DNA of 37,754 nt. Origin: an uncultured bacterium. Its GTDB lineage: Bacteria > RBG-13-61-14 > DATKZS01. Made by a program: the position numbers and the translations under genes. This document shows, one piece after another, positions 5,778 to 19,763 of this stretch. Location of the stretch: contig CAZYTX010000032.1 in the NCBI GenBank assembly GCA_964650485.1, positions 1 through 37,754 on the forward strand, in the 5' to 3' direction. Below the pieces are notes generated by a model. The model saw only the letters and a list, made by a program, of their open reading frames with translations, was not told the origin of the DNA and made no database searches. How positions within the stretch are numbered: position 1 is the first letter of the stretch; each line of letters begins with the position of its first letter.

Positions 5778-6137
5778 TGGTGGAGGCGGCGGGAATCGAA
5801 CCCGCGTCCGGAGACCTTCACCCCGGGGCTGCTACGTGCGTATCCCGCGCTTGATTTTAACCCAAAACCGCCGCGCGGGCGCGGAAGCTTTTGGCGATCC
5901 CCCTCTTTGATTCAACTCCTTGCAAGGCTGAGGGCTTTCCCGCAAGGGGTCGTCCTGTCTTCATTGCGCCCGGGTCCGTCCCGACAGGAGAGGACGGTCG
6001 GACGTCGCGGTCTTTACGCCGCGAGGGCGTAATCAACAGATTCGCCGTTTAAAAAGGCGCCGCTGTTTAACGTGCTTGCGGCAGCACGGCACGCTCCCGC
6101 AGGGCTCAACTGTCCCCGTCGAACCCATTTCGCCCCC
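5778..6137 (-). ncRNA. ssrA: tmRNA (ssrA), ~360 nt
   Basis: The reverse complement has a tRNA-Ala-like 5' end GGGGGCGAAATGGGTTCGACGGGG with a G3:U70 pair. The 3' end is GGACGCGGGTTCGATTCCCGCCGCCTCCACCA (T-arm plus CCA). An internal tag reading frame ...AAC GGC GAA TCT GTT GAT TAC GCC CTC GCG GCG TAA gives (A)NGESVDYALAA, ending in the canonical YALAA. Confidence 0.9.
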
Positions 6138-6224
6138 ACAAATATTATTATAACCATTTTGCGTGATCCCGCAATAGCGCCCGCGGGGATGCAAAAACTC
6201 ATGCATTCCGTTAGAATAATAGAG

Positions 6225-8813
6225 ATGACGCTACCGAGAGATATGCTCGACCACGTGAGCACGCCCGGGCGCTACCTGCCCCTGGAGCTGAACGTTCGCG
6301 GGAAGGACCTTGAAAGGGCCGAGGTCAAGGCGGCGCTCGCTTTCCCCGACCTTTACGAGGTGGGCATGAGTCACCTGGGGGTGGGCATCCTCTACCACCT
6401 TATGAACGACCTCGAATGGACGGCCTGCGAGAGGGCCTTTGCGCCCTGGACGGACATGGAGTCCCTGATGAGAGCGAAGCAGGTCCCATTAGTGTCCATG
6501 GAGAGCCAGGTTCCCTTGAGCAAGTTCGACCTCTTGGGCTTCTCGCTCACCTACGAGCTCTGCTACACCAACGTGCTGAACATGCTGGACCTTGCCGGCA
6601 TACCCCTGTTTGCAAAGGACCGCGAGCAAGATGGGTGGCCCCTGGTCATAGGGGGCGGGCCTTGCGCGTCCAACCCTGAGCCGGTGGCGCCCTTTTTCGA
6701 CGCCTTCCTGTTCGGGGACGGCGAGGACGCGGTGCCCGAGATGTGCGGGGCGATAAGGGAGTGGAAGCAGGGCCGGGGCGATAAAAGGGACCTGCTTTCG
6801 AGGCTGGCCCTGATCGAGGGTGTATACGTGCCGTCATTTTTCGAGCCGGTGTATAATGAAGACGGCGCTATAAAGGAGATAAGGCTCCTGCAACGGGGGT
6901 GCGAGCGGGTAAAGAGGAGGGTCGTCTCTGACCTTGACAGCGCGTACTTCCCCGGCTCTCCCCTGGCGCCGGTGATCGAGCCTGTGCACGACCGGCTGAT
7001 GGTGGAGATCGCCAGGGGGTGCACCCGTGGTTGCAGGTTCTGCCATGCGGGGTCGGTGTGCCGCCCTGCCAGGGAGAGGTCCCCGGAGAAGGTGCGCGAG
7101 CTGGTGAGCAGAGGTCTTGCAGCCACCGGTTACGAGGAGGCCTCACTGCTTTCCCTTTCCGCTGGGGACTACACCTGTCTTCCCGAACTGGTCATGTCCC
7201 TTGTGAAGGAGCATTATAAAAACCGGGTGTCAATAAGCCTTCCCAGCCTCAGGGTGCAGGGTATTCCGGACGAGGTGCTAAAAGCCATGCAGTCGGTGAG
7301 AAAGACCGGCTTCACCCTGGCGCCCGAGGCCGGCACCGAGCGGCTGAGAAGGGTGATAAACAAGGACTACTCTGAAGATGACCTGCTGGGTACCGCACAG
7401 AGGGTGTTTTCGCAAGGATGGCGTAACCTTAAGCTCTACTTCATGGCGGGTCTTCCTGACGAGCGAGACGAGGACATCGAGGGGATTCTGGAGACGGCCT
7501 GGAAGGTCTCGAAGATAAAAGGGTCAAATGGCAGGCCGCAGGTTACGGTGAGCATAGGCGGTTTTGTGCCAAAACCCCACACCCCTTTCCAGTGGGAGGC
7601 CCAGGCCGGGGTGGAGCGGCTGAAGCAGGTGCAGCAGCGGGTGCGTCGCGGCTTTTCCGGCAAGGGTAAAAGGGTGAGGTGGCACGATCCCTGGATGTCC
7701 AGGCTGGAGGGGGTGTTCAGCAGGGGCGACCGCAGGCTGGCCCCGGTGCTGGTGCGGGCATGGCGCAGGGGTGCCAGGTTCGACGGGTGGAGCGAGATGT
7801 TCAACCACGCGAGGTGGGATGAGGCCTTTGCAGAGGAGGGGATCGAACCGGAATACTACACGAGGGAAAGGGACCGTGAAGAGGTGTTCCCCTGGGAGCA
7901 CCTGGACAGCAGGGTAGGGCGAGAGTGGCTGTGGAACGAGCGCGAGCGGGCTTATAACAGGGAGATGACGCCCGACTGCAGGGACGCGGGCTGCCAGAGC
8001 TTCTGCGGGGCGTGCGACTTTGGAAAGATCAAGAACAGCGAGGCGGACGAGGAGCCTTTCGAGAAGATAAAGGAGCCGCTCCCTTATGCGGCGCCGCAGC
8101 CCAGAACTCACTTTCTCTACAGGGTGCAGTACGCCAAGAGGGGCGACATGAGGTTCATGGGCCAGCTCGAGGTCACGCGGCTGTTCGGCCGGGCAACAAG
8201 GCGCGCCGGCCTGCCCATGCGCTACAGCGAGGGTTTTCACCAGAAGCCGCGCATCATGTTCGGGCCGGCTCCTCCCCTGGGCGTGGCCAGCGAGGCCGAG
8301 TACATTGACCTGGAGCTTTTGCGCAGGCTCCCCGAGGAAGGGGTAAAGACCGCGCTTGGCGGGGAAATGCCGGAGGGAGTGGAGATAAAAAGGGTGCAGG
8401 AACTCCCGGCAAAGGCCCCTGCGGTAACCTCGGCAATAAGCGACCTCGAATACCTGGTGAGCCCTGCAAACGGACTGGGCTTCCCGGAGGACAAAATAAA
8501 AAGGTTCATGGACAGGGATAGCCTGTTGATCACCCAGAAGAGGGAGAAGGGCGACCGCGAGGTGGACGTCCGCTCTCTGGTCAAGTACCTGGCTGCGGAG
8601 GACGACGGGTCATTGCGCATGGGCATAAAGAGGGTTGAAGGCCCGGGGGTGAAGCCGCAGGAGGTGATAAAATGCGTGTTCGGGATGGACGAGGAAGAGG
8701 TGCGGAACCTCGAGATAATAAAGACCCGGGCCAGGTTCAAGAAGCCGAGTCCGGTGCGTTATCCTGGCCGGTCGGAGAGGGCCAGGAAGCCCGGGGGTCG
8801 GAGGCGCAGCTAG
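6225..8813 (+). CDS. B12-binding-domain radical SAM protein fused to a DUF2344 / radical-SAM-linked domain (TIGR03960 + TIGR03936 type)
   Basis: The N-terminal B12-binding-like region is followed by CTRGCRFC (CxxxCxxC) and a C-terminal ~250-aa DUF2344-like domain (HFLYRVQYAKRGDMRFMGQLEV...). The start is uncertain among ATG 6201, 6225 and 6243. The ORF's 5' extension overlaps ssrA and is rejected. Confidence 0.85.
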   Translation: MTLPRDMLDHVSTPGRYLPLELNVRGKDLERAEVKAALAFPDLYEVGMSHLGVGILYHLMNDLEWTACERAFAPWTDMESLMRAKQVPLVSMESQVPLSKFDLLGFSLTYELCYTNVLNMLDLAGIPLFAKDREQDGWPLVIGGGPCASNPEPVAPFFDAFLFGDGEDAVPEMCGAIREWKQGRGDKRDLLSRLALIEGVYVPSFFEPVYNEDGAIKEIRLLQRGCERVKRRVVSDLDSAYFPGSPLAPVIEPVHDRLMVEIARGCTRGCRFCHAGSVCRPARERSPEKVRELVSRGLAATGYEEASLLSLSAGDYTCLPELVMSLVKEHYKNRVSISLPSLRVQGIPDEVLKAMQSVRKTGFTLAPEAGTERLRRVINKDYSEDDLLGTAQRVFSQGWRNLKLYFMAGLPDERDEDIEGILETAWKVSKIKGSNGRPQVTVSIGGFVPKPHTPFQWEAQAGVERLKQVQQRVRRGFSGKGKRVRWHDPWMSRLEGVFSRGDRRLAPVLVRAWRRGARFDGWSEMFNHARWDEAFAEEGIEPEYYTRERDREEVFPWEHLDSRVGREWLWNERERAYNREMTPDCRDAGCQSFCGACDFGKIKNSEADEEPFEKIKEPLPYAAPQPRTHFLYRVQYAKRGDMRFMGQLEVTRLFGRATRRAGLPMRYSEGFHQKPRIMFGPAPPLGVASEAEYIDLELLRRLPEEGVKTALGGEMPEGVEIKRVQELPAKAPAVTSAISDLEYLVSPANGLGFPEDKIKRFMDRDSLLITQKREKGDREVDVRSLVKYLAAEDDGSLRMGIKRVEGPGVKPQEVIKCVFGMDEEEVRNLEIIKTRARFKKPSPVRYPGRSERARKPGGRRRS

Positions 8814-8838
8814 CCCACGGCACAACGAGGATGCGGTG

Positions 8839-10353
8839 ATGGAAAGCGATATTCTGATAAACGTGACCCTGCAGGAGACCAGGGTGGCGGTGGTTGAGAA
8901 CGGGGCGCTGGCCGAGGTGCACATCGAGCGGCTGCGGGACAGGGGCATAGCCGGCAACATTTACAAGGGCCGGGTGGTGCGCGTTCTTCCCGGGATGCAG
9001 GCGGCCTTTGTTGACATCGGTCTCGACCGGGCCGCGTTTCTTTACGTGTCCGAGGTTATTCCTTATTTGAAGAGCATCAGCCTGCCCGATACAGATGAGC
9101 TTATCTCGGAGAAGGAGGAACTAAGCCACAAGCTCTCGGATGAAGCCGAGCAGGCTGACATCCAGGACCTTTTAAAGGAGGGCCAGGACGTGGTGGTCCA
9201 GGTGACAAAAGAGCCGCTTGGCACCAAGGGGGCACAGGTGACCACCCACGTGACCATGCCCGGCAGGTACCTGGTGTACATGCCCACTGTTCGCCACGTG
9301 GGGGTGAGCAGGAGGATAGAGAGCGACAAGAAGAGGGCCCAGCTAAGGAAATGGGTGGAAGAGATGAGGCCCGACGGGGCCGGCGGCTTTATCGTGCGCA
9401 CTGCCAGCGAGGACCACTCCAAGGAGGACCTCAGGGCTGACAAGGACTACCTGTTGAAGGTATGGAAAGACATGCAGAACCGGGCCATGCGCTCGAGCTC
9501 GCCCAGCATCGTGCACCGCGAGCTTTCCCTCGACCTCAAGGTCATCCGCGACCTTTTCACCGAGAAGGTCAGAAGGGTGGTGGTGGACTCCGAGGACCAG
9601 TTCCATGAGATCAAGTCATTCATGGAGATGTACATGGGTGAGAAGGACGGCAAGGTGGAGCTGTACACGGGCGAGCTCCCCCTGTTCGAGACCGCGGGCG
9701 TGGAGCTGGAGATCAACCGGGCCCTGGACAGGAAGGTGTGGCTCAAAAGCGGGGGATACATAGTCATAGACCAGACCGAGGCGCTAACCGCCATAGACGT
9801 AAACACCGGTCGCTACGTGGGCAGGCGCAACTTCGAGGAGACCATATTAAAGACCAACCTGGAGGCATTGAAGGAGATAGTGTACCAGATAAGGCTGCGC
9901 AATATCGGGGGCCTTATAATAATAGACTTCATTGACATGGCCGACCAGGGCAACCGCGAGAGGGTGTTCCAGGCGCTTGACAAGGAGCTCAAAAAGGACA
10001 AGACCAAGTCAACCATACTCAAGATGTCGGAGCTCGGCCTGGTGGAGATGACAAGGAAGAGGGTGCGCGAGAACCTGTTCCAGACCCTGTGCGAGTCTTG
10101 CCCTTACTGCGAGGGCAAGGGGCACTTGAAGTCCAGGACAAGCGTGTGCTACGAGATCTTCAGAGAGATAAACAAGAGAGCGGACCTTGCGGGAAAACAC
10201 CTGAACCTGTTCGTGAACCCCGAGGTCGCGGACCTCCTCTTCGACGAGGAGAGGGAAGGGATCGAGGAGCTGGAGCGGAACCTGGACGTGAAGGTGGAGA
10301 TAATAGTGAACAACTCCTTTCACCAGGAGCAGTTCGAGGTGGAAGCTGGCTAA
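8839..10353 (+). CDS. rng: Ribonuclease G (Rne/Rng family ribonuclease)
   Basis: The N-terminal S1 domain (NIYKGRVVRVLPGMQAAFVDIGLDRAAFL) is followed by a DNase-I-like catalytic region with (E)ALTAIDVNTG, then a Zn-link and small domain. Length is 505 aa. A GAGGAT RBS precedes ATG 8839. Confidence 0.9.
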   Translation: MESDILINVTLQETRVAVVENGALAEVHIERLRDRGIAGNIYKGRVVRVLPGMQAAFVDIGLDRAAFLYVSEVIPYLKSISLPDTDELISEKEELSHKLSDEAEQADIQDLLKEGQDVVVQVTKEPLGTKGAQVTTHVTMPGRYLVYMPTVRHVGVSRRIESDKKRAQLRKWVEEMRPDGAGGFIVRTASEDHSKEDLRADKDYLLKVWKDMQNRAMRSSSPSIVHRELSLDLKVIRDLFTEKVRRVVVDSEDQFHEIKSFMEMYMGEKDGKVELYTGELPLFETAGVELEINRALDRKVWLKSGGYIVIDQTEALTAIDVNTGRYVGRRNFEETILKTNLEALKEIVYQIRLRNIGGLIIIDFIDMADQGNRERVFQALDKELKKDKTKSTILKMSELGLVEMTRKRVRENLFQTLCESCPYCEGKGHLKSRTSVCYEIFREINKRADLAGKHLNLFVNPEVADLLFDEEREGIEELERNLDVKVEIIVNNSFHQEQFEVEAG

Positions 10354-10366
10354 AGGAGCTTGAGTA

Positions 10367-12997
10367 ATGGAAAAGGACCAAAAGCTCGGAGACCTTCTGG
10401 TCGAGGCCGGTTTTGTTGACGAGATGCAACTTAGATCGGCGCTGGGCCACCAGAAGAGGTGGGGCGGAAAGCTGGGAAAGGCGCTTGTGGACCTGGGCTT
10501 TATTGAAGAAGACGTGATGATAAAGTTCCTTGCCGAGCAGTTCAAGATGAACGCCGTGAACCTGGCACGGTCGAGAATAGCCCCCCAGACCTTCCAGATG
10601 GTGCCCGAAGATGTCGCCAGGAGACATAGGGTGGTGCCGGTGGTGGCAAGGGGAACCGGGAGCAAGAAAACCGTGGTCCTGGCAATGAGCGACCCTACAA
10701 ACCTGGGAGTGATAGACGAGATACAGTTCCTCATAGGCGCAAAGGTGGAGCCGGTGCTGGCTACAGACTCGGCAATCTCCAGGGTGCTGGCAAGCTACGG
10801 AGACTATAACCCCGAGGCATCCAGGGAAATACATTACCATGAAGCCGTGATACCGGCGCAGCTTAGAGATATGGAAGAGGAAAAGGCCGCCAAAGAGGCC
10901 GCTAAGAAACAGCGGGAACAGCCGAAGCCGGAACAACCACAGAAAACACAGACACCCGAAGAGGATAAGCTGGAGATAGGAGACGAGGACGAGCTCGAAG
11001 TCGTAAAGGGCGATGTGACCATGCTAAAGGCCCAGAAGCCCTCCCGAAAAACTCCGCCTCCGGAGCAACCCGGGCCCACAACCAGGCAGCCTGAAGCTCC
11101 CTCCAGGGGCAGGGAGGTCATACTGGGAGAGGAAGAAAAACAGGAAAAGCCACAGGAGAAAAAATCCGAATCACCCTTCCTGCTAAAGCCTGAAAAAGAG
11201 GAAAGGCAAGATATGGCCCCTCCGCCTCCTCCCAAGCAGGTGTCTGAGCAGGAGAGGTCCGTACCTCCAGATGTCGAGGGGCCACCATCAATGGAGCAGG
11301 CTCCTGAAGAAACCCCCGGGCCACCGGGTATTGAGGAGCCTCCCTTGATCGAGGACCTGGAGCCTGTCACCGAGAGCCAGGAACATGTCGGCCCTCCACA
11401 AGCTCCCGAGGAGGGGCCCCAAGAGCCGCAACCCGGGCAAGCCGAAGAAAAATCCTGGTTCGTGCCCCCGTCTCCAAATCAGGAAGCACTCTCGGACCAG
11501 TCCGCGGAGGATGAAATCTCTCCCCTCGAGCTCCCGGACGAGGAGCCGGGAAAAATTGAGCTGGCTGACACCCACGAGTTCATACCCCCGGCCCATGCGG
11601 AGCAGTTTATTGGCGGGACAGAGGAACAGGAGGAGCCGGAACAAGCAGTGCCGGGCCCTGACTCGAGCGCGCCGCCTCCACAAGAGGAGGCGCCCGAGAT
11701 CGGCCGGGAGCAGACAGGGATGCCCCCTTTGCCGGACGATCTGGCGAATTCGCCCGGAGCGCAGCCGGATGTAGAGCCCGTGCAGGAGCAAGAGGCAGCC
11801 GCTCCGCCCGCGGCCGAGGATTATGAGAAGCCCGAAGCCCGGCCTGAGACCCCTGCTCCGCCGGGAGAACCGGATGCCGGTACGCAAAAGGGGCCCGACC
11901 TGGAAGTGCCTTCCCTGGATTTCATGGGCGCCGGGGAGAGCGTAGACCACGGGCCGCAGCAGCCTGAAGGGCCCCAAGAGACCGGGCCAGGGCCTGTCGA
12001 GGAGCAACCCGGACCCGCGGAAAAGCCCCCCGACCTGGGGATCGGGGACCAGGGACAACAAGCGCCCGGACAGCAGCCACAGGCCCCCGCCCAGGACGAG
12101 ATCTGGAGCAGTCCGGGGGCGAGCGAGGAATCCATCTGGGCGGCAGGCGAGTCCGCTGAAAAGCCGGCCGCGCCTGACCTGCCTGACCTGCCCCCATTGC
12201 CGGACCTGGGTGCAGGCTCCCCCTTGGATGAAGGGCCGTCACCCGGACCGGAGCAGGAAGAAAAGCCCGCACCTCCGACAGACACGGGAGAAGACTACTT
12301 CTCGGCCCTGGGGACGGATGAGGGTGAAGGTCCCTCTCCGCTGCCCTTCGAGGCCCCGCCCCCGGACCTGGGAGACGAAGCGCCGGAGCAGCCGCAAATC
12401 CCGGCCTCTGACCCTAAGGAGGAACCGCCATTGGATGAGGCGGGTCAAGCACAGGAGTTCGAGCCGCTAACACCGGAGCAGCCTTCACCGGGCTACGAGG
12501 TGGTGGAGAGCGAAAGCCTCGATTATGAGCCCGGGGAGGGATTCCAGTCTTTTCAGCAAGCTCCGGGCGAGCCATCAGTGGAGGAGCCTGCAGGGCCTCC
12601 TTTGCAAACCGACCAGGAAGAGAGGCTTCCCTGGGAAGATATGGAACAGCAGCGAGAGGAACAAAAGCAAGAGGAGGAAAAGCCTCCTGATGAAGACCCG
12701 CTATATCTGATGGCAAGGGTGGCCGCGGCCCCTGACGAATCGCCCGGGCTCGAGGCTGCAAAAGAGCAGATCGAGAAGCTGGAGGGTTTGGGCGAGGAGT
12801 ACCTGGATACAAAAGAAGTGAAAAAAAGATTGGAGCAGGTGGCCGAGATGGAGCACGACATTAAGGAGCGCGAGTACCAGTTCGACGAGCTTTTGAACCT
12901 GATGATGAAAAAGGAGATGGGCGAGGTCACCCAGGAGCTGTTCATGAAAGAGCTCCAGTCCCTGAAACAAAAGGTTGACCGCTCCCGAGAGAATTAA
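10367..12997 (+). CDS. MshEN (T2SS-E N-terminal, c-di-GMP-binding) domain protein with a ~650-aa Pro/Glu/Gln-rich disordered region and a C-terminal coiled coil
   Basis: The N-terminal ~145 aa match the GspE_N/MshEN fold. KLGDLLVEAGFVDEMQLRSALGHQ fits the RLGxxLVxxGFVxxxxLxxALxxQ c-di-GMP-binding motif. The following low-complexity P/E/Q/A/G sequence is acidic, and the last ~90 aa form heptad-like coiled coil. Confidence 0.75.
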   Translation: MEKDQKLGDLLVEAGFVDEMQLRSALGHQKRWGGKLGKALVDLGFIEEDVMIKFLAEQFKMNAVNLARSRIAPQTFQMVPEDVARRHRVVPVVARGTGSKKTVVLAMSDPTNLGVIDEIQFLIGAKVEPVLATDSAISRVLASYGDYNPEASREIHYHEAVIPAQLRDMEEEKAAKEAAKKQREQPKPEQPQKTQTPEEDKLEIGDEDELEVVKGDVTMLKAQKPSRKTPPPEQPGPTTRQPEAPSRGREVILGEEEKQEKPQEKKSESPFLLKPEKEERQDMAPPPPPKQVSEQERSVPPDVEGPPSMEQAPEETPGPPGIEEPPLIEDLEPVTESQEHVGPPQAPEEGPQEPQPGQAEEKSWFVPPSPNQEALSDQSAEDEISPLELPDEEPGKIELADTHEFIPPAHAEQFIGGTEEQEEPEQAVPGPDSSAPPPQEEAPEIGREQTGMPPLPDDLANSPGAQPDVEPVQEQEAAAPPAAEDYEKPEARPETPAPPGEPDAGTQKGPDLEVPSLDFMGAGESVDHGPQQPEGPQETGPGPVEEQPGPAEKPPDLGIGDQGQQAPGQQPQAPAQDEIWSSPGASEESIWAAGESAEKPAAPDLPDLPPLPDLGAGSPLDEGPSPGPEQEEKPAPPTDTGEDYFSALGTDEGEGPSPLPFEAPPPDLGDEAPEQPQIPASDPKEEPPLDEAGQAQEFEPLTPEQPSPGYEVVESESLDYEPGEGFQSFQQAPGEPSVEEPAGPPLQTDQEERLPWEDMEQQREEQKQEEEKPPDEDPLYLMARVAAAPDESPGLEAAKEQIEKLEGLGEEYLDTKEVKKRLEQVAEMEHDIKEREYQFDELLNLMMKKEMGEVTQELFMKELQSLKQKVDRSREN

Positions 12998-13274
12998 GCC
13001 GTTCTCGCCCCATTTATGATTTATCCATATTATATGCAAATATTATTATCGCACAGAGGCACGGAGAACACAGAGATTTCGAAAAATCTATTCTCTGTGA
13101 CCTGGCTGGCTCTCTTGAGAAAGCGTAAAGGATTTTCCCGAGGGTAGAGCATGCAGGTTTGCCTCGAACGCAGGGGCCCAAATGAGGGCGGCCGTTCTTC
13201 GGCTCCTGTAAGCTGTCCGCTATGCCCTCTGTGCCTCTGTGTGAAATACAAATTTTGTTTTTGACAAGAGTGGA

Positions 13275-14309
13275 ATGAAGACACTGGTGACAGGCGCGAG
13301 CGGGCTTATCGGGTCCCGGGTGGTGCGCGCACTACTGGCCCAGGGCCGCGAGGTGCGGGCCATGAAGCGGGCATCCTCGGACCTGCGCAACCTTGAGGGG
13401 CTGGACCTCGAGCTGGCGGACGGGGACCTGCTCGACCCCGGCTCGCTTGACCGCGCACTAAAAGGGTGCGACAGCCTCTTCCAGGTGGCGGCCATATACC
13501 GGCACTGGCACCCCAGGGGCGGCGAATTCATCAGGAAGACCAACATCGAGGGCACCCGCAACATCCTCGAGGCTGCGCTGAAACGCGACCTTGAAAAGCT
13601 GGTCTACACCAGCTCCATATCCTCGGTGGGTTTTAAGCCCGGTCGTTTGAGCACGGAAGATGATTTCCCGGACCTGAAGGACTGCCGCCGGCAGCCCTAC
13701 CGGGAGAGCAAGTTCATAAGCGAGAAGATGGCCTTCGAGTACGCGGAGAGGCTGCCCATCGTGATCGTTAACCCGGCCTCCCCCATAGGCGTGGGCGACT
13801 GGGCCCCAACACCCACCGGCCGGGTGATCCTGGACTTCCTGAACGGCAAGATGATAGCCTTTGTTGACGTGGGACTAAACCTCATTGACGTGGACGACCT
13901 GGCACAGGGATACCTGCTGGCCGAAGAGAGGGGGCGCGTTGGCGAGCGCTACATCCTGGGCAACCATAACACCCGGCTCCGGGAATTCCTGCAAATGATC
14001 GCGGACATGACCGGGCTTCCGGCCCCCCGTGTAAAGGTGCCCAAAGCCCTCCTCAGGGTGGTGGCAGAGGTGAACGAGTTCGTATCAGACATTACAAAGA
14101 GGGAACCGGTGGCCGCGGTGGAGCAGGCCCTGCACACCCGGTACAACGAGTTCGTGGACTGCACAAAGGCCAGGACGGAGCTGGGACTTGCGCAGAACGA
14201 CATCCGGATAGCCATCCACAAGGCTGTGAGATACTACCTTGACACAGGCGATGTAAAGCCCGGCCGCAAAAGCATGATCGAGCTGAAGGGTCCTGACACC
14301 ACTACTTAA
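13275..14309 (+). CDS. NAD-dependent epimerase/dehydratase (extended SDR family; dihydroflavonol-reductase/HpnA-like)
   Basis: Rossmann motif TGASGLIGSRVV is at the N-terminus, a catalytic YxxxK (YRESK) follows, and the 344-aa length fits. Confidence 0.85.
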   Translation: MKTLVTGASGLIGSRVVRALLAQGREVRAMKRASSDLRNLEGLDLELADGDLLDPGSLDRALKGCDSLFQVAAIYRHWHPRGGEFIRKTNIEGTRNILEAALKRDLEKLVYTSSISSVGFKPGRLSTEDDFPDLKDCRRQPYRESKFISEKMAFEYAERLPIVIVNPASPIGVGDWAPTPTGRVILDFLNGKMIAFVDVGLNLIDVDDLAQGYLLAEERGRVGERYILGNHNTRLREFLQMIADMTGLPAPRVKVPKALLRVVAEVNEFVSDITKREPVAAVEQALHTRYNEFVDCTKARTELGLAQNDIRIAIHKAVRYYLDTGDVKPGRKSMIELKGPDTTT

Positions 14310-14681
14310 TAGCGTATGGCCACCTTAGGGAAGACAAAGCCGGGCCACCTCGCCCGGGTGCAGGCCCCTTACGGCAGGTTCAGCTATCTCTTGCACGACC
14401 CGCTCTCGATTATATTCATTGCCGGGGGCATTGGACACCTGACTTTTCCACATCTCCCATCTAATTTGCGAAGCCGGCAAAAAAGCTCACGCCATCCCGG
14501 TTGCCATCGCCGTTATTGACTCCTGGCTGAACCCGGGGCGGCACGTCGCCGGCCCTGTGCGACTCTTAGCTCTGTTTGCCTTGTTTGCCAAACATTTTTT
14601 GGGCTCTTTTTTTCAGATGAATTTGTAACCGTGCTCGCGCTCGGTTATTATCTCGCTTTGAATAACAGAGGAGGGTTGCAC

Positions 14682-15197
14682 ATGGCATACCAGAGCCTGC
14701 CAAAGAGGCTCGAGAAGTGGGCCCAGGAGAGGGTGCCCGGGCTGCGCACGTACCTCGCACGCGAGAACCTGCGCGACTCGGACAAGCTGATCCGGGACGA
14801 GCTGGCCGCCCGCCTGGACAAGGTGAAGGCAGTGCTTGACAAGGCCAAGCAGGACCGGGTGGACGCCGGGAGCCTGAAGAACCTGGACCGGCTGGACAGG
14901 GCCACCAGGAAGGTCGAGAAGGTAAGGGACACCATAAAGTTCGACTCGAGAGGATACCAGGGAATATTCGACCCCCGTGAGGTCACGGAAAAGGACCTGC
15001 ACGCCCTGCTCGACTTCGACGGCAAGCTATTCGACGTGGTCGAGCTTTTGGAGGCCGAGGCTGTAAAAGTAGCGGCGCTCTCGGACCCCGAACTCGCAAG
15101 CGCGCTCTCCGGGTTCGAGGACCAGGTGGAGGCCATGCACCAGACCCTGGGGCAGCGCGAGGACTACTCGAAGGAAAAGCTCCCGGCCGCAAGGTAA
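14682..15197 (+). CDS. Hypothetical coiled-coil protein (171 aa), first gene of the SPFH-associated cluster
   Basis: There is a strong RBS AGAGGAGGG 6 nt upstream of ATG 14682. The protein is charged and helical/coiled-coil rich, and it sits immediately upstream of and co-directional with the SPFH gene. Confidence 0.6.
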   Translation: MAYQSLPKRLEKWAQERVPGLRTYLARENLRDSDKLIRDELAARLDKVKAVLDKAKQDRVDAGSLKNLDRLDRATRKVEKVRDTIKFDSRGYQGIFDPREVTEKDLHALLDFDGKLFDVVELLEAEAVKVAALSDPELASALSGFEDQVEAMHQTLGQREDYSKEKLPAAR

Positions 15198-15223: not shown

Positions 15224-16369
15224 ATGGCATTCCTGGACATAATCGAGTGGTTTGACGAGACCGGCGAGGAGATGGTGCACCGGGTGCCGGAGTCGGGCTC
15301 CGCGGAGACCAAGTACGGCTCGCAGCTTGTGGTGCGCGAGAACCAGGCCGCGGTGTTCTTCAGGGACGGCAAGGGCCTGGACGTGCTCGGGCCGGGCAGG
15401 CACACCCTGTCCACCCAGAACATACCGCTCCTCACCAAGATGCTGACCGGCCTGGGCTTCGGCCTGGACTCTCCCTTTCGGACCGAGGTGCTCTTCATCA
15501 ACATGAAGGTGTTCACAAACATGAAGTGGGGCACCCGGGAGCCGGTGGCCTTCCGCGACTCCGAGCTGGGCCTGGTCAGGCTGCGCGCCTTCGGCAACTT
15601 CACCGCCCGGGTGACGCAGCCGCTGCTCTTCGTCAACAACCTGGTGGGCACCATGGGAAGGTACACCACCGCGGACATAGAAGGGTACTTGAAGGACGTG
15701 ATCGTGGCCAGGCTCAACGACCTCTTGGGAGAGCAGCTCGACACCGTGTTCAACCTGCCAGCGGTGTACGACGAGCTCGGGGTGGCGGTGAAGATGCGGC
15801 TCTCGGACGACTTCGACAAGTACGGGCTCGAGCTCATTGACTTCTTTGTACAGTCAATCACCCCGCCCGAGGAGGTGCAGAAGATGATTGACGAGCGCGC
15901 CGGCATGGGCGCGGTGGGCGACCTGGGAAAGTTCACCCAGTTCCAGGCGGCCAAGTCCATGCGGGACGCGGCCCGGGGAGGGGCCGGGGGCGAGGGCGGC
16001 GGACCGGCCTCCGCCGGCATGGGAATGGGCGTGGGCGCCGGCCTTGGCCTCATGATGCCGGGGATGATGTTCCAGACCATGAAGGGCATGACACCAGAGC
16101 AGACCCAGCAGAAGATACAGGAGTCCGGGGTGATGGCATGCCCGGCATGCCAGGCGCAGATACCACCGGACTCGAGGTTCTGTCCAAAGTGCGGAGAGCA
16201 GCTCGTGGTGGTGAGGAAGTGTCCGAGCTGCGGCAGGAACGTGGACGCGGAGGCAAAGTTCTGCTCCCAGTGCGGCCAGGACCTTTCGAGCAAGCCGGCC
16301 TGCCCGAGCTGCAAAAAAGAGGTGGTCCCGGGGACGAAATTCTGTCCCCACTGCGGGGAGAAGCTTTGA
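15224..16369 (+). CDS. SPFH/band-7 family protein (COG4260-type) with three C-terminal zinc-ribbon repeats
   Basis: The N-terminus MAFLDIIEWFDETGEEMVHRVPE...QLVVRENQAAVFFRDGK is typical of this SPFH subfamily. A Gly/Met-rich linker follows, then three CPxC-x9-11-FCxxCG motifs. RBS GGAGGAAAGGG precedes the start. Confidence 0.85.
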   Translation: MAFLDIIEWFDETGEEMVHRVPESGSAETKYGSQLVVRENQAAVFFRDGKGLDVLGPGRHTLSTQNIPLLTKMLTGLGFGLDSPFRTEVLFINMKVFTNMKWGTREPVAFRDSELGLVRLRAFGNFTARVTQPLLFVNNLVGTMGRYTTADIEGYLKDVIVARLNDLLGEQLDTVFNLPAVYDELGVAVKMRLSDDFDKYGLELIDFFVQSITPPEEVQKMIDERAGMGAVGDLGKFTQFQAAKSMRDAARGGAGGEGGGPASAGMGMGVGAGLGLMMPGMMFQTMKGMTPEQTQQKIQESGVMACPACQAQIPPDSRFCPKCGEQLVVVRKCPSCGRNVDAEAKFCSQCGQDLSSKPACPSCKKEVVPGTKFCPHCGEKL

Positions 16370-17183: not shown

Positions 17184-17936
17184 ATGCAGATAAAGTGCAC
17201 ACAGTGCGGGGCCGGGGTGCCGATCGAACATGACACCGGCTTCATCAACTGCCCCTTCTGCGATACCGCGTTGTATCTGGACACTGACCGTACGGTCAAG
17301 CACTTCTACCTGGACTTCCAGGTCTCATCGAAAGACCTTGCCCCCGTGATCCAGAGGAAGCTCTCCTACATGGAGGTCAAGGCGCCGGTGAAGGTTTTGA
17401 GCCACTCCATGGTGTTCCTGCCGGTATGGAAGCTGGAAGCCGCCACCGGTGAGACCGTGCTGGTGCCGGGGGCCGCCTTGTCCATGGAGGCCATGGAGGA
17501 GCTGCGACTGCCCGCGGGCGACCTGAAGCTGATGGGCCCGGACGCTGCCGCTGACAAGGAGCTGACCGAACCAGAGCTGCTTCTGGAGGACGCGGCCCGC
17601 AAGGCCCGGGAGACGCTGGGGGGTGAGGACGTGAAGATCAGGGCCGCCTCGCTGGTGCACCTGCCCTTTTACCGGGTGGAGTACTCCTGCAGGGACGAGT
17701 CGTTCGAGGCCGCGGTGGACGGCGTATCCGGCGAGGTGTACGCAGACTCCTGGCCCTCGGCCCCCCACAGGCAGAAGGACAGGGTCCTGGGCATGATCGC
17801 GGCCCTGGCCTTCGGGCTCTTCTTCATCGAGGCCGCGGCCATACCCGGCTTCTGGCTGGTGGTCCCGGCTTACGCAATCACCGGGGTCGGCATCTACTTC
17901 CTTGCAAGGGGCGTTCTCAAGAAGATGGGATGGTGA
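17184..17936 (+). CDS. Zinc-ribbon membrane protein, paralog A (N-terminal CxxCG...CPFC; two C-terminal TM helices)
   Basis: N-terminal CTQCG-x14-CPFC is followed by conserved blocks shared with paralog B (HFYLDFQ..VIQRKL; LPFYRVEY...AAVDGVSGEVY). The C-terminal hydrophobic hairpin is VLGMIAALAFGLFFIEAAAIPGFWLVVPAYAITGVGIYFLA. Confidence 0.7.
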   Translation: MQIKCTQCGAGVPIEHDTGFINCPFCDTALYLDTDRTVKHFYLDFQVSSKDLAPVIQRKLSYMEVKAPVKVLSHSMVFLPVWKLEAATGETVLVPGAALSMEAMEELRLPAGDLKLMGPDAAADKELTEPELLLEDAARKARETLGGEDVKIRAASLVHLPFYRVEYSCRDESFEAAVDGVSGEVYADSWPSAPHRQKDRVLGMIAALAFGLFFIEAAAIPGFWLVVPAYAITGVGIYFLARGVLKKMGW

Positions 17937-19116
17937 GCCCTTGGCAAAGATCGTCCACGTAAACTGCCCCAGGTGCGGGGGCACCCTGGGCATGGCCGGC
18001 GTGGACCGTGTGGTCAAGTGCCGCTACTGCGGCTCCTGGTCGTTGGTGGACGCGCCCGGGGTGGTGCCCGAGTACTTTGTAATGCCGAGCCTCAAAGAGT
18101 CGGACGCCCGCCGGGTGATACAGCGGCTGCTCATGGACGACGACATGCCGGACGGTATGCTGAAGACGGCCGCGTTCCACTCTGCCAGGCTCTACTTCAT
18201 TCCCTACCACGAACTTTCCGGCAAGAGGCTCGGCACCATGACCACCACACAGTACAAGGAGACCTCGCGCAGGCCCTCACTCGATCTTCGGACCGGGGCC
18301 TATGGAATGGAGGGGGTGAGTCTCCGGGAGCAGCGGGCCATGACCCCCAAGGAGAAGCAGAAGGACACCAGGGTGGTGATGGCCGACGTGACCAGGCTCG
18401 AGCCCGCGGTCAGGCTCAGCCAATGGGCCCTGGACCAGGCGGAAATAAGCTCGCTGCGTTCGGGCCCGGCCGGGGTGCTGCAGCCCATGAACCGCCGGAC
18501 CATGGAGAGGCTGGGGAAGGTATACGACGCAACAGTGTCTCCCGAGCAGATGATCTCGTCCATGGACTCGGGGCGGCTGGCCGCGTCCCTGGACGACCGC
18601 ACCGAGATCGCCGAGGTCAGGATCAAGAGGATATTTTATCCTGTATGGAGGGTGAGGTACCGCTACCAGGGCAGGCTCTACGGCGCAAGTGTGGACGGGG
18701 TCACCGGAAAGGTCATGACCGCGAGGGCCCCCCGGGACGACCGCAACCGGGTGCTCTGGCTGCTGGGCACGAGCGCGCTCCTCTCTTTCGTGGGAGGGAA
18801 GATCGTGAGAGCGGTGGGCATAGCCGCCCTGTTCGATCGGGAGAGCGTTAACGCCCTGCTCACTTTTTTTGTCCAGGGCGCGTATCTTGTGGCGCCCCTG
18901 GTGCTGGTGGCTCTCATGGTGGTGGTGTTCGTTATGGGGATGGGGTGGGAGCAGTTCAGGTACGAGGGCGAGCTCATAATAGAGGGCGACAAGCGGAGGG
19001 TGGAGAAGATCAACCGCCCGGCTCGCACGGCCTTCGACAAGATACAGAAGTTTTTGCAGGACGTCATCAACCGGGTCTTTCAAACTTATCGGCAAAGGCG
19101 GGTTAATAGATGGTGA
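17902..19116 (+). CDS. Zinc-ribbon membrane protein, paralog B (CPRCGG...CRYCG; C-terminal TM helices)
   Basis: It shares with paralog A EYFVMP...VIQRLL and YPVWRVRYRY...ASVDGVTGKVM. The start is uncertain: a TTG at 17902 or 17941 is required to include the zinc ribbon, and it overlaps the upstream gene. Its stop overlaps the start of paralog C (ATGGTGA). Confidence 0.65.
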   Translation: MQGAFSRRWDGEPLAKIVHVNCPRCGGTLGMAGVDRVVKCRYCGSWSLVDAPGVVPEYFVMPSLKESDARRVIQRLLMDDDMPDGMLKTAAFHSARLYFIPYHELSGKRLGTMTTTQYKETSRRPSLDLRTGAYGMEGVSLREQRAMTPKEKQKDTRVVMADVTRLEPAVRLSQWALDQAEISSLRSGPAGVLQPMNRRTMERLGKVYDATVSPEQMISSMDSGRLAASLDDRTEIAEVRIKRIFYPVWRVRYRYQGRLYGASVDGVTGKVMTARAPRDDRNRVLWLLGTSALLSFVGGKIVRAVGIAALFDRESVNALLTFFVQGAYLVAPLVLVALMVVVFVMGMGWEQFRYEGELIIEGDKRRVEKINRPARTAFDKIQKFLQDVINRVFQTYRQRRVNRW

Positions 19117-19763
19117 CGGAGGAGCTGAAGGTCGTGCCCCTGGTGTGCCCCGACTGCGGGCGGGGCCTTTTGGGCCTTCGATACGACAAGGTGTTCTTCT
19201 GCATGAGCTGCATGCAGGGGCTCTACCCTCCGGCCCGGGGACAATGGGAGCGCTTCCCGGCGAGCTTCCCAAAGCTCGACGAGAACTCCATGCAGCCCTC
19301 TTTTTACCTCCCCTTCTGGGAGATCAAGATCAAGGTTGATGCCGTGGCCGCCAGCAGGCAGCAGCAGGTGGCGCTAAAGAAGCTGGAAGACCTGGACACG
19401 GCCTGGGTCACCGGCTTCTCCGTGATCCGGGCCAGCTACTACGGCGACCTGGGCCTGCTCTACACGGAGAAGAGGATAAGGCTCGAGCCCGGTCCCAGGC
19501 CGGCGCGAGCCTTCATCACCGGGTGCAGCCGCACGGTCCTTGACGTTACAAAGTACGTGGAGCTGCTGGTCACCTTGATCCTGGACAAGAGGGCCGACGT
19601 GACCGGCATGGAGCTTGACATTAAAACAACCGGTGCAAAGCTCTGGGGGGTCCCCTTCCTGGACAGGGGCGACAAGGTGGCGGACCTGGTGACCGGCGCC
19701 GAGCTGCCGGTGTTCGCCATTGACGACCTCGAGGACGTGAAGAGGGTATACTCCAGAAGATAA
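19110..19763 (+). CDS. Zinc-ribbon protein, paralog C (CPDCG...CMSC), soluble
   Basis: N-terminal Cys4 ribbon is followed by SFYLPFWEIKIKVD, which echoes the LPVWKLE/YPVWRVRY blocks of A and B. There is no TM segment. Confidence 0.65.
   Translation: MVTEELKVVPLVCPDCGRGLLGLRYDKVFFCMSCMQGLYPPARGQWERFPASFPKLDENSMQPSFYLPFWEIKIKVDAVAASRQQQVALKKLEDLDTAWVTGFSVIRASYYGDLGLLYTEKRIRLEPGPRPARAFITGCSRTVLDVTKYVELLVTLILDKRADVTGMELDIKTTGAKLWGVPFLDRGDKVADLVTGAELPVFAIDDLEDVKRVYSRR

Follow-up and report, generated by a model that had tools for sequence, protein, structure and literature searches.

Introduction

c-di-GMP receptors act on pili, secretion, polysaccharide synthases, transcription factors and riboswitches. 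The C-terminal half of RNase E, in E. coli and Caulobacter, is the platform of the degradosome, and PopZ-type hubs have an interaction module at one terminus, a helical module for oligomerisation at the C terminus and, between the two, an acidic linker rich in Pro/Glu that varies in length. The protein analysed here shares the domain family of its N-terminal 146 residues with the MshE, PilB, PilF and GspE ATPases (Wang et al. 2016, PMC5013675; structure 5HTL), in which a tandem 24-residue motif for c-di-GMP has been defined, and the Arg at the first motif position of MshE stacks on guanine (PMC5013675, PMC12943098). An MshEN switch can also act on a non-ATPase output, as in NfrB, a c-di-GMP-activated glycosyltransferase of E. 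coli with a C-terminal MshEN domain (PMC10118264), and M. xanthus encodes 17–22 MshEN proteins (PMC5013675, bioRxiv 10.1101/2021.10.14.464357). In the literature that we searched we found no dedicated protein receptor for c-di-GMP that is coupled to a nuclease of the RNase E/G family, nothing that connects MshEN with RNase G/E or with disordered scaffolds, and nothing treating DUF2344 together with RNase G.

Here we analyse a gene for an 876-aa protein with an MshEN head, found in a 37,754-nt stretch of DNA (the window) from an uncultured bacterium. Its product may be an oligomeric scaffold or adaptor, disordered and responsive to c-di-GMP, that partners an RNase G module, the link to RNase G being one of gene order alone; we put the probability of this reading at about 45%.

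Results and discussion

The 876-aa gene (Table 1) starts with ATG and has its own Shine-Dalgarno sequence, AGGAG, 8 nt before the start codon; 13 nt separate the ATG from the stop codon of the RNase G gene. The first-pass annotation, made from the sequence without database searches, had described folded ends around a low-complexity middle, an architecture that looked novel and was likened to disordered scaffold or condensate-forming proteins and to c-di-GMP-regulated polar landmark proteins. A disordered scaffold with folded ends is supported by our analysis, which gave no support for condensates or a polar location, and neither the searched literature nor the source names of the homologues contained a description of the family.

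Table 1. Features of the 876-aa gene and its upstream partners, in window coordinates (residues refer to the 876-aa protein).
Feature	Position	Strand	Basis
Upstream partner 1, fused Radical_SAM_N2 + Radical_SAM + DUF2344	6072..8813	+	Pfam, synteny, tblastn
Upstream partner 2, RNase G-type Rne/Rng ribonuclease, 505 aa	8836..10353	+	Pfam, NCBIfam
876-aa gene: MshEN + acidic disordered linker + C-terminal helix	10367..12997	+	ORF call, Pfam, NCBIfam, homologues, AlphaFold
Folded N-terminal module, residues 1-185	10367..10921	+	AlphaFold pLDDT 60-96, Foldseek, alignment
53-residue c-di-GMP-binding motif, residues 6-58	10382..10540	+	NF053729, motif scan, published motif definition
Acidic Pro/Glu/Gln-rich predicted disordered linker, residues ~186-792	10922..12742	+	composition, charge-hydropathy, AlphaFold, orthologue lengths
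SLiM-1, residues 199-222, EG[IV]D[IL]..D..[LIV]E[VI][VI].G[ED]V.M[LVI][KR]A	10961..11032	+	alignment, AlphaFold
SLiM-2, residues 386-407, P[IL][DE][IL]PE...[ILM]E[LIV]A.AHEF[IV]P	11522..11587	+	alignment
SLiM-3, residues 659-666, LPFE.PPP	12341..12364	+	alignment
Conserved C-terminal module, residues 779-875	12701..12991	+	alignments, profile search, AlphaFold

We analysed the N-terminal head by profile, motif and predicted structure. The MshEN domain proposed in the first-pass annotation was recovered above cutoff both by Pfam (MshEN, PF05157; residues 61–146, E 4.9e-18, 65.3 bits against a cutoff of 23.1) and by the NCBIfam c-di-GMP motif domain NF053729 (residues 6–58, 65.2 bits against 38), and occupies residues 1–146. 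The tandem 24-residue motifs, KLGDLLVEAGFVDEMQLRSALGHQ and KLGKALVDLGFIEEDVMIKFLAEQ (residues 6–29 and 35–58), flank the 5-residue spacer KRWGG, and both motifs and the spacer fit the published pattern (PMC5013675, PMC12943098). The only deviations are a Lys at position 1 of both motifs, where MshE has Arg, and a single Met for Leu; the relaxed motif given by the same authors, [RKPN]hGxxhh..., covers all of them, Lys included (PMC5013675, PMC12943098). Lys in place of the guanine-stacking Arg may nevertheless alter the affinity, which counts against the main reading given below.

The modelled head has the expected four-helix N-terminal and alpha/beta C-terminal fold (MshEN_N and MshEN_C), followed by a conserved helical extension at residues 149–183. 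Foldseek matched it to MshE with c-di-GMP (5HTL; E 3e-8, 34% identity), and also to PilF GSPII domains and a PilB-N/PilZ complex (5HTL, 8PDK, 6EJF and 7LKM at E 2e-8 to 1e-4). The first ~145 residues had been thought to be the whole of the folded N terminus; the folded end itself stands, but its confidently modelled part reaches ~185 and includes the conserved helices of the extension. Sequence and model show the N-terminal ~185 residues to be a bona fide MshEN domain whose tandem c-di-GMP motif is intact, and by motif and fold the head is a predicted c-di-GMP receptor. The tandem motifs, the spacer and the predicted fold are common to this protein and the MshE/PilB/PilF/GspE ATPases. Unlike them, however, it has no ATPase domain; its output is a disordered linker with a novel helical tail, and its genomic context is RNA processing rather than pili or secretion. 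NfrB, which gives a partial NCBIfam match to the 876-aa protein, resembles it in placing an MshEN switch on a non-ATPase output, as we propose here, but is a membrane protein with a glycosyltransferase domain that the 876-aa protein lacks.

The C-terminal module consists of an APDESP motif, a short helix (~795–809) and a ~60-residue helix (~817–875) with the near-invariant core FDELLNLMMKKE.GE.T.ELFM.EL..LK. Two AlphaFold models agreed with the earlier description of a helical C terminus: the full-length model has helices at 793–806 and 815–875, and when the last 125 residues are modelled separately, 815–875 is one helix with pLDDT 95–98. Heptad a/d positions are 50–75% hydrophobic in the best register, against 10–35% elsewhere, with shifts of register and only partial spacing. 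The long helix may form a dimer or higher oligomer as a coiled coil.

When we looked for relatives of the tail, Pfam at E ≤ 10 returned nothing beyond GvpG, SHOCT and coiled-coil noise below threshold, a sequence-profile search of the PDB returned only non-significant matches to peptide-deformylase C termini (E 0.09–0.5), and Foldseek found nothing in the PDB. The tail core LMMKKELGEITQELF is similar to the 'G-E-I-T-x-E-E-F' helix motifs of GvpG and SHOCT. GvpG (PF05120) matched 12 of 23 family tails weakly (best single-sequence E 0.0022) and SHOCT (PF09851) matched one of the 23 (E 0.21). We rejected membership in either family, as all scores were far under the Pfam thresholds (12–18 bits against cutoffs of 25–31 for the family tails; 12.3 bits against 30.6 for GvpG with the tail of the 876-aa protein). 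In addition, AlphaFold models the tail as a continuous helix and not as a helix-turn-helix.

We used the tail to delimit the family. An exhaustive search of 1.84 billion representatives with a tail HMM gave 26 matches, all at E <1e-10, always C-terminal and in proteins with this same architecture or in fragments of them that lack the N terminus; an earlier word-indexed profile search had returned 4 fragments. The family is closed, with 26 cluster representatives among 1.84 billion, and head and tail are conserved across it. None of the 26 representatives has the tail fused to RNase E/G or to any other protein in a Rosetta-stone search. The members come from MAGs labelled 'bacterium' or 'Deltaproteobacteria bacterium', all from a single group of uncultivated bacteria that has been poorly sampled.

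By sequence, the head is closest (38–51% identity) to other proteins of Myxococcota and their relatives (for example P0036–P0046), which share with it the signature ALGHQ.(R/Q)WGGKLG. They, too, carry acidic A/E/P-rich tails, of 460–1200 aa, and are likewise uncharacterised, but they have other C-terminal modules and lack the three short linear motifs (SLiMs) described below. These 'MshEN plus acidic tail' proteins make up a wider unstudied class.

The neighbourhood of the gene pointed to RNA processing. The RNase G-type enzyme was identified by Pfam (RNase_E_G and RNase_E_G_Thio) and by NCBIfam (RNase G, 572 bits; TIGR00757, 527 bits); it has no long C-terminal tail, and all 120 RNase G homologues among the matches listed are also tail-less, at 389–516 aa. 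The radical-SAM protein probably starts ~40–55 codons downstream of the GTG, as tblastn alignments to it begin at query residues 40–58. The order radical-SAM/DUF2344, rng and family gene, all on the same strand, was seen in 15/15 tail-bearing loci with upstream DNA, with a gap of −1 to 23 nt between rng and the family gene in 11 of the 12 loci measured, although the genes outside this triad differ between most loci. In contrast, rng was nearby in 0/70 loci that have the MshEN head alone in common, and the Myxococcota relatives are never beside it. One divergent protein that the C-terminal profile missed (P0035) is not beside rng either. The RNase G linkage tracks the family-specific C-terminal module exactly, and this strict genomic association with rng and the gene for the radical-SAM/DUF2344 protein is the most informative feature of the locus.

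In the closest non-family RNase G loci (Desulfuromonadales, 55–59% identity) the order is radSAM-rng-rplU-rpmA-obg without the family gene. The family gene lies between rng and the rplU cluster in two loci, directly upstream of rplU in one (L089) and with a DUF6922/AbiEii pair before rplU in the other (the P0020 contig). In a comparison of family with non-family RNase G, neither a surface nor an extension was specific to the family, and only T137 and L283, two conservative positions, set the two groups apart; the outcome is uninformative or mildly negative. The genomic coupling to RNase G had gone unnoticed in the first-pass annotation.

We propose that the 876-aa protein is a cytoplasmic receptor for c-di-GMP that has the build of a scaffold or adaptor and is a partner of the upstream RNase G module. 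The conserved SLiMs and/or the tail would dock RNase G, the radical-SAM protein or other RNA-processing factors, so that a disordered, motif-bearing platform of the kind that RNase E carries in cis would be supplied in trans. Binding of c-di-GMP may change its assembly or how it binds partners, and the second messenger would thereby be coupled to rRNA/mRNA processing or ribosome maturation; we suggest these processes because the gene ancestrally sits between rng and rplU-rpmA-obg. If the partnership is real, it would provide a direct route from the second messenger of the sessile/motile switch to RNA processing or ribosome maturation, and would mean that RNase E's solution of a disordered scaffold can come from a separate gene. 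The family would then also be a compact natural test case, with sensor, linker and oligomeriser, for the constraints on the length and charge of disordered linkers.

It is also possible, if unlikely, that the protein is a self-assembling c-di-GMP hub, PopZ-, HubP- or condensate-like, which organises a cell pole or cytoplasmic microdomain and lies beside rng only because it is expressed along with housekeeping genes or because the gene order was inherited. With ends that are folded or helical and, between them, a Pro-rich acidic linker whose length varies, the protein resembles PopZ-type hubs, though it is much longer than PopZ and has a nucleotide-sensor head. Such a hub would agree with the lack of family-specific adaptation in RNase G and with the Myxococcota relatives, where the same design of MshEN and acidic tail occurs in quite different neighbourhoods; because these neighbourhoods differ, nothing inherent in the design ties it to RNase G. 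That the family comes from one group also counts against the main reading, since part of the RNase G synteny could reflect inheritance rather than selection. Against a hub, rng adjacency is invariant where the genes outside the triad vary, and the linkage follows the family-specific C-terminal module exactly. The protein has no sequence similarity to any known hub protein: when membership of the PopZ, HubP and FimV families was examined (PopZ domain; LysM, TM segment and FimV C-terminal motif), MshEN was the only Pfam family at E ≤0.01.

We judged the disorder of the linker from AlphaFold pLDDT and a charge-hydropathy plot. Composition, charge-hydropathy and pLDDT agreed with the earlier description of a long, acidic, P/E/Q-rich low-complexity middle. 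Residues 166–785 contain 19% P, 18% E, 9% Q, 8% A and 8% G, with 5% K and 2% R in the linker (K+R ~7%), and have a net charge of −112; past ~residue 300 the net charge of all 25-residue windows is negative, from residue 161 on each 40-residue window lies on the disordered side of the charge-hydropathy line, and pLDDT is <50 across almost all of 190–790. One suggested check had been whether a linker of variable length is conserved between the terminal domains. The outcome was as expected: in 12/12 loci these are kept in one ORF, and the linker of the 12 orthologues, always acidic, is 279–803 aa long with a net charge of −34 to −147 and 13–26% P.

Outside three SLiMs, collinear across family members, the length and sequence of the linker are otherwise unconserved. 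SLiM-1 is kept in all 31 aligned family members and is modelled as a weak beta-hairpin (strands 210–214 and 218–222, pLDDT ~50). In SLiM-2, which also occurs in four fragments (P0087, P0089, P0091 and P0092), F405 is invariant, as are L659, F661 and E662 in SLiM-3. These motifs had been overlooked in a linker previously supposed to be featureless.

The linker invites comparison with the scaffold half of RNase E. Each is a long segment with poor conservation, predicted disorder and variable length, each is equipped with short conserved motifs, and each is tied to a catalytic domain of the RNase E/G family, here by gene neighbourhood. However, the 876-aa protein is encoded by a separate gene just after that of an RNase G-type partner and is not fused to the nuclease; it has a c-di-GMP sensor, no recognisable membrane-targeting helix and no sequence homology to the RNase E scaffold, and its linker is strongly acidic, without Arg-rich RNA-binding segments. 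The likeness is a functional analogy only, and not homology. The missing Arg-rich segments, like the absence of family-specific adaptation in RNase G, count against the scaffold reading. In its most specific form, RNase G of this uncultivated lineage would have acquired a degradosome-style platform in trans, oligomeric, acidic and disordered, whose SLiMs recruit RNase G together with RNA-processing or ribosome-maturation factors, and whose assembly, possibly a BR-body-like condensate, is gated by c-di-GMP through the MshEN head. We consider this full version quite unlikely; if true, a nuclease of the RNase E/G family would have a direct c-di-GMP receptor of its own, and the protein would be a bacterial ribonucleoprotein scaffold under second-messenger control.

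The charge of the linker raises another explanation, in which the protein regulates RNase G negatively. As an RNA mimic or pseudo-substrate, the polyanionic linker would block the surfaces with which RNase G, or basic ribosomal proteins, bind RNA, with the SLiMs and tail as anchors, and c-di-GMP would switch the inhibition on or off. Extreme negative charge is typical of nucleic-acid mimics, and here it is conserved, with almost no Arg/Lys, the opposite of what an RNA-binding scaffold would carry; the rng synteny fits an inhibitor as it fits the main explanation. But inert spacers just as typically have acidic linkers rich in Pro, and the ~3-fold variation in linker length is hard to square with a defined mimic. 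We consider such a regulator decidedly improbable.

Some homologues have the source name 'type IV pilus assembly protein PilB', and the best full-length family match of the N terminus of the 876-aa protein is indeed PilB (TIGR02538). This match, however, covers only profile positions 1–171 of 564 (75.7 against a cutoff of 675), and the T2SSE ATPase domain PF00437, with its Walker motifs, gave no match in the protein. The PilB names are therefore wrong, being automatic transfers from the common N-terminal domain, and are corrected here. It is highly improbable that the protein is an accessory of type IV pili or type II secretion, an ATPase-less copy of the PilB/MshE N terminus competing for c-di-GMP or for the partners of PilB. 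MshEN-type domains do bind PilZ in X. citri (7LKM), and Myxococcota relatives are found near Tad/T2SSF genes, one of them beside Tad-like genes. Yet a Pfam scan of window ORFs revealed no gene for pili or secretion, and there was none among the called neighbours at family loci with gene tables, apart from a lone N_methyl-domain gene ~0.6 kb upstream at one locus.

The 876-aa ORF called by the first-pass annotation proved real, with its Shine-Dalgarno sequence, a coding-like codon pattern and collinear orthologues. The PEEx and PPxP 'repeats' reported in the linker were not enriched over shuffles (PEE, 3 observed against 4.0 expected; PPxP, 5 against 4.5), self-BLAST found no internal repeats in the 876-aa protein, and TRF and a direct-repeat scan of the DNA gave trivial matches only. 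The region is compositionally biased, not repetitive. Since it lacks repeats and the orthologues are collinear, the worry about misassembly is weak; TRF, direct-repeat scans, self-BLAST and shuffled motif counts ruled out collapsed repeats. That the ORF is spurious or the low-complexity region misassembled is effectively refuted: T-poor, purine-rich sequence does leave several frames open, but the annotated sense frame alone has no internal stops (28 and 36 in the other two), its GC at codon positions 1/2/3 is 0.74/0.42/0.67, as in coding DNA, >30 orthologues from independent assemblies have the same head, three collinear motifs and tail, and there are no DNA repeats able to collapse. Six antisense ORFs of 116–257 aa do overlie the linker region, as had been noted, but GC skew, to which they had been attributed, is only +0.02 over 10830–12700. 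We dropped it in favour of T-poverty: T makes up 11.6% of this interval and the AT skew is +0.37, which removes stop codons on both strands.

Results

We analysed the reading frame directly downstream of the RNase G gene (rng) together with its homologues, hereafter the family. It begins 13 nt after the stop codon of the preceding gene, with an AGGAG Shine-Dalgarno sequence 8 nt upstream. As its frame has no internal stops, compared with 28 and 36 in the other two sense frames, and GC content by codon position (0.74/0.42/0.67) follows a coding-type pattern, the gene is a true coding sequence and not a frame left open by chance, and it encodes the 876-aa protein described in the first-pass annotation. 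The long low-complexity stretch seen there was also found: residues 166–785 are rich in P (19%), E (18%), Q (9%), A (8%) and G (8%), with a net charge of −112. Six antisense ORFs of 116–257 aa overlap this region. They had been ascribed to GC skew, which, however, is only +0.02 between 10830 and 12700; the real bias is a poverty in T (11.6%; AT skew +0.37), which depletes stop codons on both strands and thus leaves these ORFs open. The PEEx/PPxP repeats claimed earlier could not be substantiated, as PEE occurs 3 times (4.0 expected from shuffles) and PPxP 5 times (4.5 expected), and self-BLAST of the protein revealed no internal repeat. TRF and direct-repeat scans of the DNA gave only trivial matches. 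The linker-coding region is, thus, compositionally biased and not repetitive, which leaves little basis for a collapsed-repeat misassembly.

Positions of the family gene, its protein segments and neighbouring features in the window
Feature	Position (nt)	Residues	Details
Fused radical-SAM/DUF2344 gene (radSAM)	6072-8813		Upstream of rng
RNase G-type ribonuclease gene (rng)	8836-10353		Directly before the family gene
Family gene	10367-12997 (+)		ATG start; 876 aa
53-residue c-di-GMP motif domain (NCBIfam)		6-58	Above cutoff
First c-di-GMP motif		6-29	KLGDLLVEAGFVDEMQLRSALGHQ
Second c-di-GMP motif		35-58	KLGKALVDLGFIEEDVMIKFLAEQ
MshEN (Pfam)		61-146	E 4.9e-18
SLiM-1		199-222	EG[IV]D[IL]..D..LEVV.GEV.ML[KR]A; weak beta-hairpin in AlphaFold
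SLiM-2		386-407	P[IL]D[IL]PE...hELA.AHEF[IV]P; F405 invariant
SLiM-3		659-666	LPFE.PPP; L659, F661 and E662 invariant
C-terminal profile	12701-12991	779-875	
Modelled C-terminal helix		815-875	pLDDT 95-98
AT-rich intergenic region	12998-13274		277 nt
HpnA-like hopanoid-associated sugar epimerase	13275-14309		TIGR03466, 344 bits, just under the cutoff of 368
SPFH/Band-7 protein	15224-16369		C-terminal double zinc ribbons in the same protein
ORFs without Pfam match	14631-15197, 17184-17936, 17902-19116, 19110-19763		

The MshEN domain noticed earlier at the N-terminus was recovered by Pfam, and its c-di-GMP motif domain by NCBIfam. The two c-di-GMP motifs of this head, with the spacer KRWGG between them, fit the published tandem motif RLGxxL(L/V/I)xxG(L/V/I/F)(L/V/I)xxxxLxxxLxxQ and its 5-residue spacer (PMC5013675, PMC12943098), apart from Lys in place of Arg at position 1 of both motifs and one Met in place of Leu. 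Both deviations are covered by the relaxed search motif of the same authors ([RKPN]hGxxhh...), in contrast to the degenerate XpsE domain, where several motif Gly and Leu positions are lost. The modelled fold of the head matches MshE with c-di-GMP (5HTL; 34% identity, E 3e-8), and also the GSPII domains of PilF and the PilB-N/PilZ complex. By sequence, motif and fold the head belongs to the MshEN family, and it is a credible c-di-GMP sensor, with ligand binding predicted from the motifs and the model. We considered a PilB/MshE ATPase identity and rejected it, because neither Pfam nor NCBIfam found a T2SSE ATPase domain in the protein.

A charge-hydropathy plot classes every 40-residue window from residue 161 onward as disordered. 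In a full-length AlphaFold model based on a 31-sequence family alignment, pLDDT is 60–96 over residues 1–185, below 50 for almost all of residues 190–790, and 57–89 in the helical C-terminus. The full-length family alignment (A1) revealed three collinear conserved islands within the disordered linker (SLiM-1 to SLiM-3), which were also seen in additional family fragments from a later search; another conserved motif, of the APDESP type, lies just before the tail helices. Partner-docking sites characteristically show up as short motifs that stay conserved while the disordered segment around them drifts, and we regard these islands as putative sites of this kind.

A second model, of the last 125 residues, gave a single helix of ~60 residues. 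Heptad-like spacing is present in it, but in a register that is not constant, and the C-terminal coiled coil of the first-pass annotation is thus a plausible candidate. The conserved C-terminal ~70–85 residues have the core FDELLNLMMKKE.GE.T.ELFM.EL..LK. An HMM of this C-terminal profile, run exhaustively against 1.84 billion cluster representatives, retrieved 26 proteins, all with E <1e-10 and none weaker. In each, the module forms the very C-terminal end, either of the same architecture or of a fragment of it truncated at the N-terminus. The tail is, thus, a family-specific module without detectable relatives: Pfam gave only sub-threshold GvpG and SHOCT-like matches, which do not place the protein in either family, PDB sequences gave only non-significant matches, and Foldseek gave none. 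The PDB matches (E 0.09–0.5) were to bacterial peptide deformylases, in their C-terminal region, which includes a ribosome-binding helix; the resemblance is probably due to chance and is recorded because the gene context is ribosome-related.

A search of 5.8 billion proteins identified ~34 homologues of 534–1104 aa, all metagenomic and with MshEN as the only Pfam domain. In databases they are unnamed, 'hypothetical', or wrongly labelled 'type IV pilus assembly protein PilB'. Alignment of the ends showed two strongly conserved regions, the N-terminal ~165–185 and the C-terminal ~70–85 residues. At 12 orthologous loci the linker varies from 279 to 803 aa, while staying acidic (net −34 to −147) and Pro-rich (13–26%). 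The earlier suggestion that conserved ends might be joined by a linker of variable length thus held, and terminal domains encoded by separate genes were never seen, head and tail being within one ORF at all 12 loci.

The strongest functional clue to the family gene is its genomic context. The order radSAM, rng, family gene, on the same strand, was found at all 15 family loci with upstream DNA (the window, L001, L002 on the same contig as L008, L003 on the same contig as L004, L006, L007, L009–L013, L015, the contig of homologue P0020, L089 and L090), and in 11 of 12 loci the gap between rng and the family gene is −1 to 23 nt. The coupling is, in short, tight and operonic. Genes flanking the triad differ between most loci, and some family RNase G proteins are only 49–53% identical to that of the window, more distant than the nearest non-family RNase G (Desulfuromonadales, 55–59% identity), which has no family gene beside it. 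The association has, therefore, persisted through considerable divergence, with its surroundings repeatedly rearranged. At 70 GTDB loci that have the MshEN head in common with the family and nothing else (Myxococcota, Nitrospirota and others), rng is never within 6 kb, and neither does the gene for P0035, a homologue missed by the C-terminal profile, lie beside rng; it follows a PBP1-type transglycosylase/transpeptidase gene. The linkage to rng, thus, tracks the family-specific tail. P0035 (L088, 2979-5072) is a divergent relative whose head is 54% identical; its tail is E/A/V-rich and retains no more than a trace of the C-terminal motif, LKEEGRLSMEEFLDDLKKL.

The neighbourhoods of these nearest non-family RNase G genes read radSAM-rng-rplU-rpmA-obg-proB-proA-nadD-rsfS-rlmH, or radSAM-rng followed by other genes. 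The first, a ribosome-biogenesis supercluster, appears to be ancestral (L089 1821-14513, P0020 contig, L087 3415-13337). In two loci the family gene stands between rng and the rplU-rpmA-obg cluster; in L089 it immediately precedes rplU, and on the P0020 contig a DUF6922/AbiEii toxin-antitoxin-like pair intervenes. The radSAM gene of the window encodes Radical_SAM_N2, Radical_SAM and DUF2344 fused in one polypeptide, and is conserved beside rng well beyond this lineage (loci L086 and L087); its GTG start as listed is probably ~40–55 codons too far upstream, as homologue alignments start at residues 40–58. A small PilZ-domain gene two genes upstream of the triad in L089 (754-1131) was not seen at the other family loci and is thus probably incidental.

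Discussion

We propose, with a probability of roughly 0.45, that the family protein is a c-di-GMP-responsive oligomeric scaffold that docks an RNase G module. c-di-GMP would bind the MshEN head, the tail would oligomerise, and the motifs and/or the tail would serve as docking sites for RNase G, the radical-SAM protein or further factors of RNA processing, in an assembly altered by c-di-GMP. The protein would supply in trans a disordered, motif-bearing platform of the type that RNase E has in cis, and so link c-di-GMP to rRNA/mRNA processing or ribosome maturation. However, the evidence for the RNase G partnership is solely gene order, the RNase G itself differs at just two conservative positions and has no surface specific to the family, and the members all belong to a single uncultivated group that is poorly sampled. 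The linker, moreover, is polyanionic and lacks Arg-rich RNA-binding segments, and so is not a functional copy of the RNase E scaffold.

It is also possible, though unlikely, that the protein is a hub or condensate that responds to c-di-GMP and has nothing to do with RNase G. Its layout is PopZ-like, and the combination of MshEN and acidic tail recurs in Myxococcota paralogues in other contexts; by membership, it falls outside PopZ/HubP/FimV, as it does outside the PilB/MshE ATPases and the RNase E scaffold. That the protein is an RNA-mimic inhibitor of RNase G we consider less likely still. A pilus or secretion accessory is very improbable, as the window ORFs scanned against Pfam include no such genes. 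An artefact can practically be dismissed.

A known sensor domain is here joined to an output architecture that is new, as is the conserved genomic partnership. In the literature searched, MshEN is linked neither to RNase E/G nor to disordered scaffolds, and the MshEN-only proteins of M. xanthus that it lists are uncharacterised. The scaffold reading offers a concrete, testable hypothesis of c-di-GMP control of an RNase E/G-family nuclease, on a computational basis and in an uncultivated lineage.

A sister group in Myxococcota and related MAGs (proteins P0036–P0046 and P0049; L005 7001-9052) has a very similar MshEN head with the signature ALGHQKQWGGKLG and acidic Ala/Glu/Pro-rich tails of 460–1200 aa (net −60 to −164), but differs from the family in its C-termini and in having no rng neighbour. 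The combination of MshEN and an acidic disordered tail thus seems to mark a broader class of uncharacterised proteins. Neighbours of the sister gene in L005 are a second MshEN gene, a PP2C-cNMP protein, an HD_5 protein, an ECF sigma factor and RcpC/T2SSF (Tad-like).

Downstream of the family gene in the window, the intergenic region contains an inverted repeat, cacagagatttcgaaaaatctattctctgtg, which was not called by a simple terminator scan and may act as a terminator or regulatory hairpin. The epimerase gene that follows is not adjacent to the family gene at other loci.
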